From: Burkholderia sp.
GTDB lineage: Bacteria; Pseudomonadota; Gammaproteobacteria; Burkholderiales; Burkholderiaceae
NCBI GenBank assembly: GCA_032470195.1
Contig: JAVHYX010000002.1
Coordinates: 263,625-327,624 of the forward strand
Length of the DNA: 64,000 bases
Reading direction: 5' to 3'
Positions 6,426 through 50,874 of the stretch are shown here, piece by piece; within the stretch, counting starts at the first letter, position 1, and each line of letters begins with the position of its first letter. The translations under genes and the position numbers were made by a program. A model generated the notes under the pieces. The model saw nothing but the letters and a program-made list of their open reading frames with translations. It did no database searches and was not told the origin of the DNA.

Positions 6426-7664
6426 ATGTCTTTAGTTCCACATCAGCTCGCAACACTTGTTCATCGGTATGGTACACCGCTCTGGGTATACGATGCTGAG
6501 ATAATCCGCGATCGTATTTCCCAATTACGGCAATTCGATATAGTTCGATATGCGCAGAAGGCATGTTCGAATGTACATATTCTAAAACTAATTCGAAAAG
6601 AAGGTGCACTTATCGACGCGGTATCGCTTGGTGAAATTGAGCGTAGTTTAGTTGCTGGATTTAGGGCGGATGGCGATCCAGAAGGCATTGTATTTACTGC
6701 AGATATTATTGATATGCCCTCTCTTAAAAGAGTTCTCGAATGTGGAATAACAGTTAATGCAGGTTCGATAGACATGCTTGAACGTGTTGGTCGTCATGCA
6801 TATGAACATAGAGTATGGCTAAGAATCAATCCTGGATTTGGTCATGGGCATAGTAGAAAAACTAATACTGGCGGTCCACAGAGCAAGCATGGTATTTGGA
6901 TTAGTGATTTGCCACAAGCTCTCGAGCTCATCCGTCGATATTGTCTAAAACTTGTCGGAATTCATATACATATAGGATCTGGTGTTAATTATAAGCATCT
7001 ATCTCTAGTTTGCAATTCAATGGTCGATCTTATCGTATCACTTGGATATAAGATCGACGCGATCTCTGCAGGTGGCGGACTATCAGTTCCATATTATGAT
7101 AATGAACCTCGAGTAGATATTACACACTATTTTAATTTATGGGATGCTGCTCGAAAGCGGATCGAGCAGCATCTCAGACGTGCGGTGCGGATCGAAATTG
7201 AGCCGGGTCGTTTTTTAGTTGCAGAGTCAGGCGTGCTCATCACGCAGGTGCAAGGGATAAATCATAGGCCGACTCACGATTTTATTCTTGTAGATGCAGG
7301 TTTTAATGATCTAATGCGTCCAGTGATGTACGGTAGTTATCATGGTGTGAATGTTTACTCACCAGAAGGTTTAGAGATAGTTGAACGTCCACTTGAAAAT
7401 CTCGCGATAGGAGGTCCGTTATGTGAATCTGGAGATGTATTTACACAGAATTCTAGCGGAGCTGTTACGTATCGGATTTTACCACGTCCAAAAATAGGTG
7501 ATTTACTATGTTTTTCAAACACAGGTGCCTATGGTGCTTCGATGTCGTCTAATTACAATAGTAGACCACTTGCACCAGAGGTTCTAATTGATCGCGGTAC
7601 ATTGAAATTGATCCGACGCCGTCAGACAATTAATGAACTTCTCGAGCTTGAACTAGATTTATAG
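6426..7664 (+). CDS. lysA: Diaminopimelate decarboxylase (enterobacterial-type)
   Basis: Motifs YAQKACSN (PLP lysine), GFGHGHSRKTNTGG, HIGSG, EPGRF, GPLCESGD and GAYGASMSSNYNSRP. Confidence 0.98.
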   Translation: MSLVPHQLATLVHRYGTPLWVYDAEIIRDRISQLRQFDIVRYAQKACSNVHILKLIRKEGALIDAVSLGEIERSLVAGFRADGDPEGIVFTADIIDMPSLKRVLECGITVNAGSIDMLERVGRHAYEHRVWLRINPGFGHGHSRKTNTGGPQSKHGIWISDLPQALELIRRYCLKLVGIHIHIGSGVNYKHLSLVCNSMVDLIVSLGYKIDAISAGGGLSVPYYDNEPRVDITHYFNLWDAARKRIEQHLRRAVRIEIEPGRFLVAESGVLITQVQGINHRPTHDFILVDAGFNDLMRPVMYGSYHGVNVYSPEGLEIVERPLENLAIGGPLCESGDVFTQNSSGAVTYRILPRPKIGDLLCFSNTGAYGASMSSNYNSRPLAPEVLIDRGTLKLIRRRQTINELLELELDL

Positions 7665-7742
7665 TAAGTTTAAATCAGCTAATCTAGACAACCCACACTG
7701 GACGTGCAATTTACATTTCTTAACTTGCCCAATACTTATTTA

Positions 7743-8561
7743 TTACTTGTTTTTTGACCATTTTACTTTATTATACAAATTCAGTATTCGAATAATCTGC
7801 GCATAAATTTTTGGATTTGCAGCAACTATTTCATGATAGTCCAGTAAATCCGCCTCACCAGTGTAGTTGCCAGTAAGACCGCCAGCCTCAGTAATAAGAA
7901 GGCAGCCAGCTGAGATATCCCGGATGTTTGTCTGTTGTTTAAAGAAACCATCAAGACGCCCAGCTGCAACATTAGCGAGATCAAGCGCAGTAGCACCGTT
8001 GCAGCGCAGTCCAGTATATGTCTGTTGTATTATTTCGATAAATAAATTCGTATAGGCTTTATAGTTATCTCTATTATCTTTACTAAGAAGCGGTAAACAT
8101 GTACCGATTACTGATCCTGATAGGAGGCTACACTGGCTAACTCGGATTCGTCTGTCGTTTAAATAGGCACCTCGCCCTCGTGTTGCTGTAAACAAATCGT
8201 TCTTATTTGGATCATAAATAACAGCCTGTGTAATTATGCCTTTATATACAAGCGCAATCGATACGCAGTAGTATGGGAAGCCGTGGATAAAATTAGTTAT
8301 GCCATTGATCGGATCGACTATCCATTGGAATTCTGATTTTCTATCTAACTGATATGATTTTTCTGAGGAAATTTTATGGTTTGGGTAGGCAGTTTTTAGT
8401 ATATCTGTGATTGTCTCTTCAGCCGATTTATCAATTTTAATTATGAAATCATTGTATTTTTTTCGTATTTCAATTAAATCGAAATTAAGAGGTATCCGGT
8501 TGATAATATGTCCGGCGCGCCGTGCGGCCTTAACGGCAGTTTTAATCATAGGATGATACAT
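7743..8561 (-). CDS. suhB: SuhB inositol monophosphatase family / Nus factor with altered catalytic motif
   Basis: Motifs [30 protein letters not shown] and [16 protein letters not shown]. Lies divergent from cysE as in Burkholderia. Confidence 0.95.
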
Positions 8562-8929
8562 AATCTAAGACAAGCTCGCTATATGAATAAAAACTATCAG
8601 AGTTATGAGGTATATTTAACATTCGATAAACGAATGACACAAATTAAAAGTCATACAACATATAATTTGAAAGGACAAAAGTTAAATATACTCAGATATA
8701 AAAAATTTCTGCACTAAATTTTTTTAAGAACGTATATGATGAATTCTACTGTGATATCTTTTCTATATCTGTATGGGTGTCTAGTAACAGTTAGCGAAGA
8801 TATAAACATGAAGCACCTCTGTCCCTATAGATTACTCTGTCTCTCTATAAGAGGTTAAATCTAATGTGCCTTACGTATTAATTGAACCAATATTTCTCCA
8901 TTAGATTGCTTCTTTTCTATCTATAAATT

Positions 8930-9658
8930 ATGTTCACAAGATTACTCGAAGACGTTTATACGATTTGTAATCGTGATCCAGCTGCTAGAAGTGCATTAGA
9001 AGTATTGATCTTCTATCCCGGTTTTCATGCACTTATCCTACATCGCGTCGCTCACAAATTTTGGTATGCCAAGCTATATTGGATAGCACGATTTATTGCA
9101 CATTTCTCGCGTTTTCTAACCGGAATTGAGATTCATCCTGGAGCGAATATTGGTCGGCGTGTATTTATTGATCATGGTATAGGTGTTGTAATTGGTGAAA
9201 CCGCAATTATCGGTGATGATTGTACAATTTATCAGGGAGTTACACTTGGTGGTACATCGCTGAAGCGCGGAGTAAAACGCCACCCAACGCTTGAATCTGG
9301 TGTGATTGTTGGCGCTGGTGCAAAAATACTTGGCGACCTCACTATTGGAACAGGCGCAAAGATCGGTGCGAATAGCGTTGTCATAAAATCAATACGCGCA
9401 GGAAATACAGTTGCCGGTAATCCAGCGAATATTATACTGTCAAATATAACACTGGATCAAAAGCAATCACTGCCGAAATCAGAGAGCACTACATATAGTA
9501 AAATATCGAATGATTCTGATAGAGTGATGTCACTTCCAATTAACGATATTATCAAGCATCATGAAAAAGAAATAGATCGATTAGATAAAATAGTTGAGAC
9601 GATAGGACATATCGATACGAATATCGAAATATTGCTCAATGATTTTAAAAAAACTTAG
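8930..9658 (+). CDS. cysE: Serine O-acetyltransferase
   Basis: Motifs [20 protein letters not shown] and VTLGGT..KRHPT; hexapeptide repeats. Confidence 0.97.
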
Positions 9659-9749: not shown

Positions 9750-10270
9750 AAAATATATTCATTTTTAAATCAAAATTAATATATCCGCCACATTCTATAC
9801 CAAAGTCTAGATTCTAGTCTGGTAAAACAAATCCATGCGCATGCCATTCAGTTCAGGATAGTACTCAGATCGATGAACGTGTCTGTTGGTCATTATACTT
9901 GCCTTACTTCTATTAAAAAGTTTAGCAACTTCTGAACAAGTTACATCGTATTTTATCAAGTGATGTATCACGTCTTGCACAAGAGATACGTATAAAGTCT
10001 CCGAGTAGGAAATATCTATCTCCTGATATGATATAGAGCGGTATTTCTCACTTTGCTAGAGTACTTAGTAATACCGCTATGCGAGCGACTAGTGGATCAA
10101 TATCTAATATATTGTCGCCAACCCCATCTTCAAAAAGATCGCCTAGAATAAATACCGGATCTAGTATTATATGCAGTATGTCGAATAAAATTCTCGAATT
10201 CTGATGCTGTTTTCGGTATGGCGATACTCAGATGTAGATCAGATAAAATAATAAAGAATATCTTGTCTTG
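9750..10270 (-). pseudogene. lpxH: UDP-2,3-diacylglucosamine hydrolase pseudogene (frameshifts, stops, internal deletion)
   Basis: Minus-strand fragments in the correct order: ILSDLHLSIAIPKT (SDLHLS at 10226-10243), VFILGDLFE, IPLYIISGDRYFLLG, KYDVT..VAKLF and FVLPD*NLD..GGY. Canonical position after cysE. Confidence 0.9.
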
Positions 10271-12558: not shown

Positions 12559-13545
12559 ATGAAGATCACATTCCTAGATTTTGAACGATCTATTACGAAA
12601 CTCGAAAAAAAAATAGATGAACTACGATGTATTCATGAAAAATCAGAAATCGATATTTCAGATGAAATAGAGCAGCTATCTCGGAAGAGTAGTCAGCTAA
12701 TAAAAAATCTATATAAGAATTTGACACCGTGGCAAGTTACAAAGATTGCTAGGCATCCACAGCGTCCATATATGCTCGATTACATTAGAGCATTATTTAC
12801 AGATTTTAATGAACTGCATGGGGATCGTACGTTTGCCGACGATGCATCTATTGTTGGCGGACTTGCGAGGTTTGATGGCAATCCGTGCATGGTTATTGGC
12901 CATCAAAAAGGCCGTGACACGAAAGAGCGTATAATACGAAATTTCGGTATGCCACGTCCAGAAGGTTACAGGAAGGCTAGGCGCCTGATGCAGCTCGCGG
13001 AAAAGTTTAGACTGCCAATTTTTACATTTATAGATACACCAGGCGCCTATCCAGGTATTGGTGCAGAGGAGCGTAATCAGTCAGTAGCGATTGGAGAAAA
13101 TCTATATGTGATGTCGAAATTGAAAACGCCAATTATTGCTACAGTAATCGGCGAAGGTGGATCTGGAGGTGCACTAGCAATCGCTGTTGCAGATATAGTG
13201 ATGATGTTAGAGTTCTCTATTTATTCCGTAATTTCTCCAGAAGGCTGCGCATCTATCCTGTGGAAGAGATCAGAAAAGGCGAAAGAAGCAGCTGAAGCTC
13301 TTAGGCTAACCGCAAATCATCTGAAAATGCTTAAACTGATCGATAAGATCATTAACGAGCCTATTGGAGGCGCACATCGCAATCCCAATGCCATGGCTGC
13401 GATACTACGTACGGCGCTCAATGATTCACTGCATCAGATCCAGGAAATAAAAATTGATTCGCTATGCAATCGTAGAATTGATCGTCTTATGGCACATGGT
13501 AGATTTAAGGAAATCGTGTTAGAAACTAATATAGAGGGCTCTTGA
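12559..13545 (+). CDS. accA: Acetyl-CoA carboxylase carboxyltransferase alpha subunit
   Basis: Motifs [28 protein letters not shown] and [10 protein letters not shown]. Confidence 0.99.
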
Positions 13546-16468: not shown

Positions 16469-16585
16469 ATTTTTATAATCTTTTAAATTTAAATACTTCT
16501 TTCAAATAGGAATATAACTTCTATAAGAACTATGCTAGTTTACATAAATCTATATTATTTCAATTTATTATAAAAAAAGATATTT

Positions 16586-16679
16586 GGAGACGTGGCCGAG
16601 AGGTCGAAGGCAATCCCCTGCTAAGGGATCATCTAGGTCAAAATCTGGATCGAGGGTTCGAATCCCTCCGTCTCCGCCA
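16586..16679 (+). tRNA. tRNA-Ser (GCT)
   Basis: GGAGACGTGGCCGAGAGG...ATCCC-CTGCTAA-GGGAT, long variable arm, GGTTCGAATCC, CCA end. Confidence 0.97.
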
Positions 16680-17215
16680 AGGAGTATTAGTTAGTAAGAA
16701 AAAGAATATATAGAGTCTAATTTAAATAAATTTTAAAGTCTTAGTCTGTTTAACGTATTTTTCTTTCTCTAGTTGTTTAGTTACAGCTTATTTATAGCTT
16801 CTTACCACTGTGCTAATATATAAAAACCTGACAATCATAGAGATTTCTTTCGAAATAAATATATAATTTTTAGCAATAATTATTTTCAAATAACTAAAAG
16901 GAGCTAGAGGTGATACGTTGTTATTTAAGCTTTATTAAGACTGCGAATCTAGATATATTTTTATAATCACGGATATAAAAACTAATGTAGAGTCTACAAA
17001 TTAAATTAATTAGGTAATTTAGATAAATTCATCCTTAAAATTTTCTTTCTATTTATTTACTATTTATTAAGTGTCTATTACAAATACGAGAATAGAATTA
17101 TTTCTACATAAAATATAAACAGATATGATGTATTTCTCGAAAATTTCTTCTAATACACCTAAGTGCTTGCAGGCTTAGCTGATAAGTTTTTTTATCTTAA
17201 ATCTTACGAAAAGAT

Positions 17216-17428
17216 ATGACTACAATTCTTTTAAAGGAAAATGAGCCGTTTGAAGTAGCGATACGTCGCTTTCGGCGAGCTATCGAAAAAAATGGCCTGA
17301 TCACTGAACTACGTGAGAGACAGTCTTATGAAAAACCAACTTCCGTTCGTAAACGTAAGAAAGTTGCTGCAGTGAAACGGTTACATAAACGCTTACGTAG
17401 CCAGATGCTACCGAAAAAGCTTTACTGA
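17216..17428 (+). CDS. rpsU: 30S ribosomal protein S21
   Basis: [21 protein letters not shown]...YEKPT..RKRKK. Confidence 0.98.
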
Positions 17429-17708
17429 AGACTTATATTTGATCTAAATATTTTAATATTGCGCCAAATTGATATTTGCTCATACTTCTTAGTATGTATA
17501 AAATTTTACTACTTTAGTATAATTAATAGTAATCGATAAGTCGTATATGTAATATATTACGTACCATAAAAAATATATTGACTCAAACATTGTCATATAT
17601 TTCCTCAAATTATAAATATTCTATAAGACATGAAGTCATGATGGGTCACTTTCAAAATAATTTTGACTTATAAGTTTAACTATATAAAATATATTAAGAT
17701 TTTTTATA

Positions 17709-42074: not shown

Positions 42075-42189
42075 TCTTGATTGTCTATTATTCTTGAAAA
42101 GGAAAAATATAAATAGATAGTATAGCTGGAAACAGAGATGTCTCTTTTAAATATCTTATTAAATTCTCAATTTATTAGAACGAAATCAT

Positions 42190-42600
42190 ATTTCTTCTGA
42201 CAAGAATTAGAGTTGACCTGTAACGAAGTTGTATTTCCAATGAAATTTATGAAATTATTAAGATAATATGACTTCTCATCGAGAGAGTAGATCAATCACA
42301 TTCTTCAATATTCATGTGAGTCCGATCATATGATTATACATTCTTTAGTTCAGATAATACGTGATTCACGATAGTCAATATTATATCTTATCAATAGAAT
42401 TGACGATAACCTTGTAAACAATGTTACGTATTTTCAGTTGTCAAGCTAGATCCACATGTATCGCGCTTCGTATTTATCTCAAAAATTATGATGTTACAAG
42501 TTGTATATAACTGATATACCTAAATGTGTTTTATCAAATGTTATCCATCGCTTACGTCTTATCTATCATTAAATAGCTATCATGTTTTAGATCAATTCTT
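42190..42600 (+). pseudogene. Very faint DEAD-box RNA helicase remnant
   Basis: ESDHMI (42318-42335) resembles EADRML; later KQCYVF...KL and VIHR fragments appear in shifting frames. Matches the recalled helicase-gluQ-rhodanese-dnaE order. Confidence 0.3.
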
Positions 42601-42659
42601 CGAGATAGTACATTTTTATTTTTATTGATAGATTTGACCTTCAAAAATAATATTTTGAT

Positions 42660-42848
42660 CTTAGAATGAGATCTATTATAGACAGCGCGTTGACAAATTT
42701 GGATGCTATATGTTCGTTAATATATAGGAAATACCGCATGCCGGAAACCGATATCAATAAACGCAGATTTAATACTATGCAGTACGAGAACTATTTTCTA
42801 AAGACATAAATCTTATCAATACCACTGCAAAATAGATCTCATTCTAAG
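42660..42848. repeat. 18-bp perfect inverted repeat pair bounding 189 bp
   Basis: cttagaatgagatctatt at 42660-42677 and its exact reverse complement aatagatctcattctaag at 42831-42848. Confidence 0.9.
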
Positions 42849-42960
42849 TGAAGCTCTTTGAGTTTTTATCCATCTTATTGGATAAGTGCGACTCGCGTTT
42901 CCTATTTCATAATGTTGATCAGGATTTTTCATGGTGAACTTCGTAGAAGTTGATATAGAG
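42730..42960 (+). pseudogene. gluQ: Remnant of glutamyl-Q tRNA(Asp) synthetase
   Basis: NLINTTAK*ISF* (42809-42847) aligns to DLLDSTARQIYLQ, mostly by single-base changes; RYQ and AVR upstream and a HGE fragment downstream. Confidence 0.5.
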
Positions 42961-43139
42961 GTAGCAATGCTTTATATAGCAAACTTTGCTATATCAACAT
43001 GATAATTTTTGATGAATTTAATTTATAAACTAAATGCTATTTTTATGATTACTACTATATTGAGCTTAAGATTTATTCAAGTATTTTTCTCCTTTGAAAA
43101 TTGAATTCTACTAAGTTGAAGTAAACGTAATATACTAGT

Positions 43140-43240
43140 TAATGATGATAATAGCTGACATATAAATGAGAATGAAATGGAAGAAATTAACTTTATTTAT
43201 CTATCAAATCGGGACAGCATTTTCAATTTCAATTATAAAT
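43140..43240 (+). pseudogene. Faint remnant of rhodanese-domain tRNA hydroxylase (TrhO-like)
   Basis: MEEIN...YQI.DSIFN resembles MKEIG...VYQLEGGILKY; immediately upstream of dnaE. Confidence 0.35.
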
Positions 43241-43414
43241 TAGATTTAATTATCTCTTATTAGATATTCGTTTTTATATCAAACAAAGAAAGAGAAGTGG
43301 GCTTTATTCAAAATTAAATTGTAAGGTCGTGACAGAGTTATGTACTAGAAAATTATATACGATAAAAAGTCTTAATAAGACCAGATCGTATCTTGACATA
43401 CTTTAACTAAACTT

Positions 43415-46972: not shown

Positions 46973-47449
46973 TTATTTAATTATATTGGCCCGACTAATA
47001 ATAACGTTGGATTATAATCTATAAATTGTTTGCTAGTGAGTTAGTATTAACTAGGCATATAATCGAAATCGATTTAACTTTAAGAGTAAAATAAGAATAT
47101 CTTCGTCGAAGACGATCTTCAGAGAATAGAGAGTTTTCAAGGTTACTATTTATAATACGTTCGAAAACGATAATATAGTCTACATATGATAAGCTTAAGA
47201 TATGACAACCTGCTCAAGGTTGGAATGATAATGAAAAACATTGTAATACAAGTATATAGTATTAGGACTTGAGGGTCGAAATTACAAAATTACAAATATG
47301 TATAAAAAATACTAATATCTGATATAGATCATCGTATTTTTATCATTATTTTTCAAAAAGTTATTAGAAGTAAAGGCAAGAATATACAACACATCATTAG
47401 TATCTACTACTCTATACATAATAGATCTTTTATTTCTGCACGAATTAAC

Positions 47450-48420
47450 TCAAGAATTAATAGTGTATCTTCTATCAAGATAAGTCTTACATCTAAGAAA
47501 GATCTGCTTTGGAAATTAAGGGTATACCCTCTATAACAGTATAAGTACGCTATATTCAAAAATTCTTAATCCTTTACTGGACTATGTAGACTTATTTTAG
47601 TAGATAGCTATTAAGTAAAAGTATATTTTATTCTTTGTGATAGTCTTTAGCTCGTATCGAATTATTTACTAAACTACATATATAAACTAGCTTTTATTTC
47701 AGTTAGGCTTAGAATGTTTAATTGGGATAATTTATGCTTGCTCATCATTTTTCCATCGAATAAATATAAGTACACTATCAATTCAATATTATATTTGAGA
47801 TCGGTCAGATTCTATCTAACTTGACTGATACAATATTTATATTCCTTTTGTGATTTATTAGCTCGCTATTATAGCTTTCCCCTCTACCTGTTCTATTTGA
47901 ACTAGTATATAGAATTTATTGTCTTGATGATTATATATGTTACTATATATTGGTCCTTAATCATTAGTAAGATTAATCATCTACTACGCGATATAAGCGG
48001 TGATTACTAGGTATTAAAGAATAGGTTTATTATCCTGTCGTTGAAAAAGATAGTTAGCAACCATAACGTATGACATTAGACTCTTCATGGAGATAATTAA
48101 AAATCTATGTAGATACACGATTCAGAATCGTATTTAGTCTGGGCTCTTACATAGCCTAACTTATATATTCTTACTTCGATAGTACTCGAGATTGTAATCA
48201 CAGACACTGTCCTAGAATCTCTAAAAGACAAAAACTACGATGATTAATAGCCTTGTGATGTTTATCATACGTCAGTTGATATTTATAATTTCACCGATCA
48301 AACATCTAATTGATATGAATCAGATATTATAATGTTCGACGGTTAGCTGATAAAAATAATTTTTAGACTGATCGCGTTCGACAAAGCCAATCGAGTAAAA
48401 AGAAATGTCATAGATTAGTT
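47450..48420 (+). pseudogene. msbA: Lipid A flippase MsbA pseudogene (membrane domain decayed, ATPase domain not found)
   Basis: Ordered fragments across frames: ILNPLLD, RLRMFN, FFHR, INSI.FEIGQILSNLT, YLFYLN* (47885-47905), SKINHLLR and ISPIKHLIDMNQ (from 48288). Located downstream of dnaE as recalled for Burkholderia. Confidence 0.88.
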
Positions 48421-48560
48421 TTAAGAGCATCGTACACATATATATTTATATAAAACAAGATTATTAGATCGAAGTTCGATTACGGAACTTCATATTCAAT
48501 TGTATGAATATTTAATCCTCTTTTAAACTTCATATATTTTTAATCGCTAATTAACTAATG

Positions 48561-49817: not shown

Positions 49818-50874
49818 ACAGTAAGTAGGAGTAGTAGAAATAGGATCCTTAATAGGACGGGATATAGAAGGTATAGCGCGATAGACAAGTAAGGAAAAGG
49901 AAATTCAATCCGTCTGCATTGTCTTAATAAGCCGTGAAGAAGTATTAAGTTTCTCTATTCCTTTGCGTTAAACTACTGCGCAGATCTAATAAGACAGTAT
50001 GTCAACGAAGGATATATTTTCATATTGTTGTTCTCAACAGCTCTATCACACGTAGAAATAATAACGTTAAATACTACGTATCAGACAATTCAGATAATAA
50101 TAAAAACTTTAGTCGATCAGCAGTCGACATATCTTTGATCTAAAAATCAATAATTTTTTGTTAATCCCCTCCTAGAGGTAGGAGGTTTGAAATATAGATA
50201 GACGTCTGAAGTACTATTATGATACAGACAGAGATAATTCTTTTTTTCTAATAGGGTCAAATATTTTAAGTAAAATTTAGAGAAATCATCGATTTGTTTG
50301 ATATTTTCTCCTTATAGTTAATATAAGATGGAACATCCATCATGAAAAATTTTACAATACATCTATTTATAATAAGGTAAGGAAAAGCAACTAAATCAGA
50401 AGATGAACTGTATAAAATTTACGAGTAATGAAACTAGAACTAGAATTTGGTATTCCAAGAGTGTATTATACACTATAATATAACTCAACTTTTCTGTTGT
50501 TATAATAAGAGGCTATACGAAGACGAAGAAATTGAGAATTCCGTATCAGGAATTAGTTATTATATTAATAATTAATAAAATAATTGATTTCTTAGATTAG
50601 AGTAATATACTCCAAGTAGCTCAATGTTATGAGTTAAAAAATTTTTTAAAAAAAATTTATATAAGTAATTGTGTTTATATTATTCTCGTTACTTTAAAAT
50701 ATTCTTTTATTTAAAAAGGCTGAGTTAAAGGGGAATCATAAATTTAATTTTCCTATCATATAATTGATGATAATTCTCTGAATATAGATGATAAGTTCGT
50801 TGAACTATTCCGAATAGTTTCATCATTAAAACAAGATCATAAAGATCTTCCTCTTTTTCGAAGGAAATCCTTAA

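Follow-up and report, generated by a model that had tools for sequence, protein, structure and literature searches.

A Putative Natural SuhB Pseudoenzyme Maintained by Selection in Burkholderia Symbionts with Eroded Genomes

SuhB and the Closest Described Systems

The subject of this work is a suhB gene located at positions 7743–8561 (minus strand) of a 64-kb stretch of DNA, referred to below as the window. Its product belongs to the inositol monophosphatase (IMPase) family, and much of the active site of that family is replaced in it. SuhB is a component of the complex for antitermination of rRNA transcription (rrnTAC) and binds NusA-AR2 as a dimer (PMC6614801). It is the last to join the rrnTAC and gives stability to the entire assembly, which then speeds elongation and processing by RNase III. 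The function of SuhB that matters for growth does not need IMPase activity (PMC4807359), and Singh et al. leave open any tie between the rRNA role of SuhB and IMPase activity. The concept of dispensable catalysis is not new, since IMPase-defective alleles of E. coli suhB made in the laboratory support growth. For one such substitution, D87N, Chen and Roberts are said to have found in 2000 that it abolishes IMPase activity and yet complements. The earlier case for dispensable catalysis was based on a few engineered E. coli alleles of this kind and on the fact that E. coli has no inositol lipids.

The window was assigned to the Burkholderia symbionts with eroded genomes that live in eriococcid scale insects because it matches them, not by a sequence label. 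The Burkholderia symbionts of the eriococcids Gossyparia spuria and Acanthococcus aceris have eroded genomes of <900 kb with ~38% GC (PMC10689751). Neither suhB nor inositol is mentioned in the paper describing these genomes. The A. aceris symbiont sequence (L001), which is collinear with the window, was used as the sister in all comparisons.

The E. coli and P. aeruginosa SuhB proteins (2QFL, 6IB7/6IB8, 6TQN/6TQO, 8WDQ) have the same fold and length as the window protein. However, they are Mg-dependent IMPases that are active and in which E67/D84/D87/T89/D212 and the substrate cleft are unaltered, whereas D87N, T89I, F159L, R160L, R184C, A188T and E205K are found in the window protein. The SuhB proteins of free-living Burkholderia (B. 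diffusa, L002; B. ubonensis, P0003; B. pseudomallei, P0005) are orthologues with 64–67% identity and the same N- and C-terminal helices, and their gene neighbourhood is that of the window, with suhB divergent from cysE, followed by cysS and accA. They carry the canonical DPLDGTTNF, EE, WD, RR and GFPFR motifs, unlike the window protein. The laboratory alleles of E. coli resemble the window protein in the change of D87 to Asn (for D87N, as reported), but they are single engineered changes tested over days, whereas the symbionts carry ~8–11 natural changes kept over a synonymous divergence (dS) of ~0.7. In addition, R184 is changed in the window protein, and some laboratory substitutions at R184 lost complementation.

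Identification of the suhB Gene

The gene at 7743–8561 is an open reading frame (ORF) without interruption that starts with ATG and encodes 272 aa. According to the profile analysis, its product matches PF00459 (inositol monophosphatase) with an E-value of 6.5e-55 (187 bits, cut-off 27). Among the NCBIfam models, SuhB (NF008027) ranked first with 214 bits, followed by HisN (130 bits) and CysQ (65 bits). The identification of the gene as hisN or cysQ was ruled out by these far lower scores and by the suhB-type synteny. The closest solved relatives are the SuhB proteins of P. aeruginosa (E-value ~1e-61) and E. coli (~1e-58), with ~40–48% identity. The closest database proteins are Burkholderia SuhB (64–67% identical), and one nearer protein (80%) comes from "Burkholderia sp. 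isolate AACE". By its best matches and gene neighbourhood, the gene is assigned as a SuhB orthologue.

A sequence-only reading of this DNA had described a full-length ORF with an altered metal-binding motif and had placed the changed residues at E. coli D87 and T89. Inspection of the minus strand agrees with it to the nucleotide: the codons GAT-CCG-ATC-AAT-GGC-ATA-ACT-AAT-TTT encode DPINGITNF, with the first Asp codon (GAT) at 8315–8313, the Asn codon at 8304–8306 and the Ile codon at 8298–8300. The EK, RD and RC motifs that it had named are present as E67-K68, R214-D215 and R186-C187. Alignment with the E. coli and P. aeruginosa SuhB sequences likewise bears out the residue correspondence, with N86 aligned to E. 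coli D87, I88 to T89 and C187 to R184.

An error of sequencing or assembly was ruled out. Over 7600–8700, the window and the Logan contig of the source run do not differ at any position (word depth ~630), and the same substitutions are found in the sister genome. Since an independent assembly is identical and the sister shares the changes, the unusual residues are not assembly noise.

The source run also contains a 151-nt contig of depth 2 that corresponds to window positions 8251–8400 and differs from it at 17 positions (~89% identity). It may be a trace of a second, related suhB from another strain, from cross-sample carry-over or from a contaminant.

Replacement of the Active Site

The window protein and its sister were aligned with 120 comparison sequences, namely, the 118 closest database homologues and the SuhB proteins of E. 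coli and P. aeruginosa, which were added by hand. The active site was defined from crystal structures of P. aeruginosa SuhB, for which the listed residues are E67, D86, L88, D89, G90, T91, F161, R162, R188, G190, A191, A192, E209, L212, D216, D38 and the D44/T91 dyad (bioRxiv 10.64898/2026.04.06.716684). The 16 listed columns that are conserved in at least 95% of the comparison sequences formed the scored set. The features of the gene are as follows (all on the minus strand).

7743–8561: suhB, an ORF for a degenerate IMPase-fold protein, identified by PF00459, 64–67% identity to Burkholderia SuhB, synteny and a dN/dS of 0.16.
8358–8360: Lys in place of the second Glu of the EE motif (E68K), with the ligand Glu67 kept; Glu in 120/120 comparison sequences, Lys in both symbionts.
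8304–8306: Asn (AAT) at the metal ligand (E. coli D87, P. aeruginosa D89, human D93); Asp in 120/120 comparison sequences, Asn in both symbionts.
8298–8300: Ile (ATA) at the water-activating Thr (E. coli T89, P. aeruginosa T91, human T95); Thr in 120/120 comparison sequences, Ile in both symbionts.
8085–8090: Leu-Leu in place of Phe-Arg in the GFPFR loop (E. coli F159/R160, P. aeruginosa F161/R162), from the alignment; residues 157–160 have low confidence in the structural model.
8001–8003: Cys (the RC motif) at E. coli R184, P. aeruginosa R188; Arg in 120/120 comparison sequences, Cys in both symbionts.
7989–7991: Thr at an active-site Ala (E. coli A188, P. aeruginosa A192), from the alignment.
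7938–7940: Lys at the inositol-binding Glu (E. coli E205, P. aeruginosa E209); Glu in 120/120 comparison sequences, Lys in both symbionts.
7920–7922: Arg in place of the Trp of the WD motif, with the ligand Asp215 kept; Trp in 120/120 comparison sequences, Arg in the window and His in the sister.

Deviations in the 16 active-site columns are rare among the comparison sequences (none in 101, one in 15 and two in 4), whereas the window protein has 8 and the sister 11. Eight replacements are common to both symbionts (L86I, D87N, T89I, F159L, R160L, R184C, A188T and E205K, E. coli numbering), and the sister has additionally lost D38, D44 and D84 (D38N, D44N, D84S). Among the affected positions, D87, T89, E68, R184, E205 and W211 are each invariant in all 120 comparison sequences. 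As a result, the catalytic motif of active IMPases, D-P-[IL]-D-G-T, reads D-P-I-N-G-I in the window protein, and the substrate-cleft residues (P. aeruginosa F161, R162, R188, A192 and E209) are L, L, C, T and K in both symbionts. D44, the partner in the Thr/Asp dyad, is present in the window protein and is Asn in the sister. The neighbouring invariant residues are replaced as well (T41I, E68K, G70Y/C, F157L, W211R/H and A214S). The loss at DPLDGT claimed in the sequence-only reading is therefore real, but its extent was understated, since the changes also reach F159L, R160L, A188T, E205K, E68K, G70Y, T41I and W211R. That reading had also treated the RC motif as a sign of general decay. This does not hold, since R184 (P. 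aeruginosa R188) is one of the listed cleft residues and R184C fits the loss of the active site.

Replaced columns are enriched in the active site compared with 96 other conserved columns (odds ratio 6.4–7.4, Fisher p from 5e-4 to 2e-3); 13–22 of these 96 columns are also changed. The same tendency is seen in the sister after the split of the two lineages, where 3 of 8 still-intact active-site residues were lost versus 4 of 83 other conserved columns (p = 0.014). Among the comparison sequences, DPLDGTTNF is kept in the reduced symbionts Ca. Vallotia, Ca. Pandoraea novymonadis and Mycoavidus, so symbiosis alone does not explain the changes.

Purifying Selection on suhB

In the codon alignment of suhB from the window and the sister, dN was 0.117 and dS 0.715, which gives an omega (dN/dS) of 0.163, with a codon-bootstrap range of 0.105–0.244 and a maximum of 0.27. 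For eight neighbouring genes with similar dS, omega varied from 0.075 (rpoC) to 0.21 (proC, tilS). The amino acid identity of SuhB between the symbionts is 80.5%, and that of the products of the neighbouring genes 72–89%. In a neutral simulation with half of that dS in each lineage, ~10.7 premature stops arose per copy and the frame was open in 0 of 20,000 replicates. Neither a broken frame nor an omega near 1, the marks of a pseudogene, was found for the window suhB. The gene is under ordinary purifying selection and is not decaying. The sequence-only reading had proposed a dN/dS comparison of sister symbionts, and the value obtained here lies on the side of a retained function. By region, omega is 0.32 for the active-site residues with two residues on each side and 0.13 elsewhere, and the relaxation of constraint is confined to the old active site.

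Since the eight active-site substitutions are common to both symbionts, they predate the symbiont split. The ORF has stayed open in both lineages at a dS of ~0.7 after these substitutions, which indicates that the protein was maintained by selection after the loss. With catalytic residues lost and purifying selection acting on the gene, the window suhB is, as judged from these alignments, a pseudoenzyme gene in the operational sense.

Predicted Fold and NusA-Facing Surface

A structure of the window protein was modelled in AlphaFold2 from 40 homologues (mean predicted local distance difference test score 79, predicted TM-score 0.83). The low-confidence segments are the mobile catalytic loop 26–33, the LPLL loop 157–160, residues 70–72 and 235–242, and the C-terminal tail 266–272. 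According to the Foldseek analysis of the model, the P. aeruginosa and E. coli SuhB structures rank first (TM 0.83–0.89) and the top 50 matches all belong to the IMPase family; among the top matches are SuhB chains from 6TQN, the rrn antitermination complex, and from 6IB8, the complex of SuhB with NusA-AR2. In the model, the alpha-beta-alpha-beta-alpha sandwich fold of the IMPase family is shown to be intact. The residues of the putative NusA-AR2-facing surface, corresponding to P. aeruginosa R131, R140 and K252 and to E. coli K108, are kept or have the same state as in free-living Burkholderia.

Proposed Explanation and Its Alternatives

The best explanation of these data, with a probability of about 0.65, is that suhB has been kept as the gene of a non-catalytic subunit that most likely acts in Nus/rrn antitermination. 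The sequence-only reading had proposed that evolution removed catalysis and kept the scaffold. This is supported by the low omega, by the shared substitutions that predate the split and by their concentration in the active site, and none of the computational tests that might have refuted it did so; the loss of activity and the Nus role are what we infer. We have high confidence that the gene is real, selected and catalytically crippled, and moderate confidence that its product may serve in the Nus complex.

In this scenario, selection on the phosphatase chemistry would have ceased in the ancestor from which both symbionts descend. Roughly half the residues of the IMPase active site were replaced there, namely, the metal-site-2 ligand (D87N), the water-activating Thr (T89I) and the cleft (F159L, R160L, R184C, A188T, E205K), together with second-shell residues (E68K, G70Y/C, T41I, W211R/H). 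As judged from the codon table and from the AAT and ATA codons of the window, the replacements examined (D→N, T→I and E→K among them) mostly follow from G/C-to-A/T changes, the type that would be expected to build up at unselected sites. Since the canonical residues are replaced, phosphomonoester hydrolysis by the two- or three-metal mechanism has very probably been lost. The remaining protein, with its sandwich fold and basic NusA-AR2-facing residues, stayed under ordinary purifying selection, which would have been for a scaffold role. If the E. coli literature applies, the SuhB dimer would bind last and lock NusA, NusB/E-boxA, NusG and S4 onto RNA polymerase at rRNA operons, and the locked complex would promote rRNA folding, RNase III processing and 30S assembly.

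General decay would give a different account of the same changes, with suhB as a young pseudogene that has no stop or frameshift yet and the active-site replacements as its first damage. The genome is indeed eroding, with remnants nearby (9763–10255, and cysE and accA in the sister) and the adjoining trmJ deleted, and the 13–22 changed columns among the 96 outside the active site would also fit. However, omega is 0.16 and no bootstrap value exceeded 0.27, the ORF is full-length in both lineages at a dS of ~0.7, at which 0 of 20,000 neutral replicates were open, and the identity of 80% is that of functional neighbours and not the 44–47% of true pseudogenes. The upstream non-coding block is conserved as well, and decay appears highly improbable. 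Several further observations weigh against the proposed explanation, and part of them would suit a protein that is still an enzyme, with a remodelled pocket (N86, I88, L158, L159, C187, T191, K208), perhaps with a single metal and another substrate. E67, D83 (E. coli D84), the Ile85 carbonyl position and D215 are kept in the window protein, so metal site 1 could still form in principle, and the protein could have residual or altered hydrolytic activity. Eight substitutions are fixed in both lineages, the omega of 0.32 indicates some constraint round the old site, and IMPase-family members use varied phosphomonoesters (HisN, CysQ and the riboflavin-pathway phosphatase). On the other hand, D38, D44 and D84 are gone from the sister, and D84 is a ligand of both metal sites. 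Such losses fit the drift of an unused site and not a new optimum. The changes examined are of the mutation-bias type, and in no known case does a family member function when the aspartates and the Thr of DPxDGT are missing (bioRxiv 10.64898/2026.04.06.716684). A still-active enzyme is considered improbable.

Other observations bear on the role and not on the chemistry, and would be compatible with a non-catalytic SuhB that acts outside Nus/rrn antitermination, through another partner linked to RNA polymerase, the ribosome or RNase III, or specific to Burkholderia. The phenotypes of SuhB are pleiotropic in P. aeruginosa and B. cenocepacia. Mutation of E. coli K251 and L254 abolishes AR2 binding (PMC6614801), and these residues are A and I in essentially all Burkholderia, so the AR2 interface cannot be verified from sequence. 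No boxA was found within three mismatches upstream of the window suhB (30 matches in the whole window versus 34 expected). The following points count against the proposed explanation in general. The genes nusA, nusB, nusG and rpsJ and the rrn boxA do not lie within the 64-kb window. R184C could conceivably affect the behaviour of the dimer or of RNA polymerase. For R184I, Wang et al. reportedly observed in 2007 that complementation of E. coli was abolished, and R184C could likewise touch the non-enzymatic role. The score of 214 bits is under the 332-bit cut-off of the NF008027 SuhB equivalog model; it is low because the model was built on enterobacterial-type SuhB and because of the active-site losses. 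In addition, the suhB sequence occurs in two DNA metagenome runs only, with no RNA runs among the matches. Against a role elsewhere, rrn antitermination is the sole non-enzymatic function of SuhB that is defined both biochemically and structurally, and a genome of <900 kb is expected to keep mainly core information-processing functions. Such a role is rather unlikely.

A natural, long-maintained and multiply substituted SuhB that is common to two symbiont lineages, with hints of recurrence elsewhere, is new. If the explanation by a non-catalytic subunit is correct, an active site that was dismantled in a protein then kept by selection in a <900-kb genome would be independent evolutionary evidence for the scaffold function. 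The two proteins would be ready-made natural separation-of-function variants, and their surface conservation could map the parts needed for the non-enzymatic role. When the genomes of these symbionts are annotated or their metabolism is reconstructed, suhB should not be taken as evidence of an inositol-monophosphatase activity.

Degenerate SuhB-Like Proteins in Other Bacteria

The search for similar cases was exhaustive over representatives of 50%-identity clusters, from which the 128 full-length sequences nearest to the query were taken; the ranking was by similarity to a query that is itself already degenerate. In 19 of these 128 representatives (~15%), all of full length, at least two of seven core catalytic residues are replaced, and in most of them four to seven. 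The degenerate proteins have, on average, a more AT-biased amino acid composition, often with T→I and D→N replacements, and come mostly from AT-biased reduced genomes. The copy of Ca. Profftella armatura (P0131; L066 5001–5792) has E67K, T89I, D212N, D38N and D44N, and that of the Arsenophonus symbiont of the louse fly Ornithomya chloropus (P0249) has E67A, D84N, D87N and T89I. Further degenerate copies are P0125 (L064 6001–6792), P0214 (L065 5001–5774) and ~15 other representatives. A protein of Conchiformibius steedae was considered as a possible dead SuhB of a free-living bacterium and was set aside, since its gene lies beside ribBA and may be a paralogue.

In the Profftella and Arsenophonus copies, the residues have been lost in combinations other than that of the window protein, which points to independent loss events. 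No paper describing natural loss of the catalytic site in SuhB was found. The chance that SuhB active-site loss is recurrent and convergent in independent lineages appears slightly better than even. If these proteins are true orthologues under selection, evolution would have repeated the separation of functions, and the conserved, fitness-relevant function of SuhB would be the non-enzymatic one. The proteins would then serve as a natural set of SuhBs without catalytic activity, with which the rrn antitermination complex could be dissected.

Region Upstream of suhB

The spacer upstream of suhB contains a conserved element.

8679–8752, minus strand: conserved non-coding block upstream of suhB, by eye ~90% identical between the symbionts.

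The block (8752–8679 in the direction of the gene) is ~75 nt long, and its ~90% identity by eye compares with ~50–60% in the flanking spacer. This conservation is consistent with conserved expression signals, and the block is probably a promoter or leader, as judged from the sequence comparison. In the promoter scan, nothing exceeded the expectation from shuffled sequences.

In B. diffusa, a boxA-like element, TGCTCTTTGTCAA, was found at L002 9897–9909, ~90 nt upstream of the suhB start. It has two mismatches to TGCTCTTTAACAA, and 0.06 matches would be expected in the locus. Nus-factor autoregulation of suhB has been described in Enterobacteriaceae (PMC5725501), and the element of B. diffusa suggests that it may extend to Burkholderia. 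At the position of this element, the block of the window has TATATTTAAC, whose similarity to boxA is not significant. A weak TATTTAAC similarity at that position was judged not significant.

Gene Content and Synteny of the Window

The window has ~37% G+C and contains a compact set of housekeeping genes, including rpoC, ubiA, proC, lysA, suhB, cysE, cysS, accA, tilS, lysC, nadK, hemH, grpE-dnaKJ, tig-clpPX-lon, cyoABC and dnaE, among others. The order rpoC-ubiA-proC-lysA-suhB-cysS-tilS-lysC-nadK is common to the window and the sister, and the order suhB-(trmJ)-cysE-cysS-accA to the window and B. diffusa. The trmJ gene, which lies between suhB and cysE in B. diffusa (L002 8900–9724), is deleted in both symbionts with no detectable remnant. 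Its site is a 368-bp spacer in the window (8562–8929), and the sister counterpart is L001 9647–10000.

The cysE (8930–9658) and accA (12559–13545) genes are intact in the window and broken in the sister (L001 8897–9646 and 5761–6129, respectively). The sister pseudogenes have 44–47% residual identity to the intact genes of the window, and the longest ORF in cysE encodes 87 aa. This is a differential gene loss between two very similar symbionts, and the two pseudogenes were used as the control for neutral decay of suhB.

In the interval between cysE and cysS, out-of-frame pieces of a 266-aa Burkholderia ORF (L002 6975–7775) were found in the window (9763–10255, minus strand) and in the sister (L001 8102–8654). 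These fragments are a pseudogene remnant present in both symbionts. In addition, the window contains four stretches of >1 kb each without an ORF of at least 110 aa (16469–17708, 42075–43414, 46973–48560 and 49818–50874), which are probably eroded pseudogene remnants. One of them, 16469–17708, carries a tRNA at 16586–16676.

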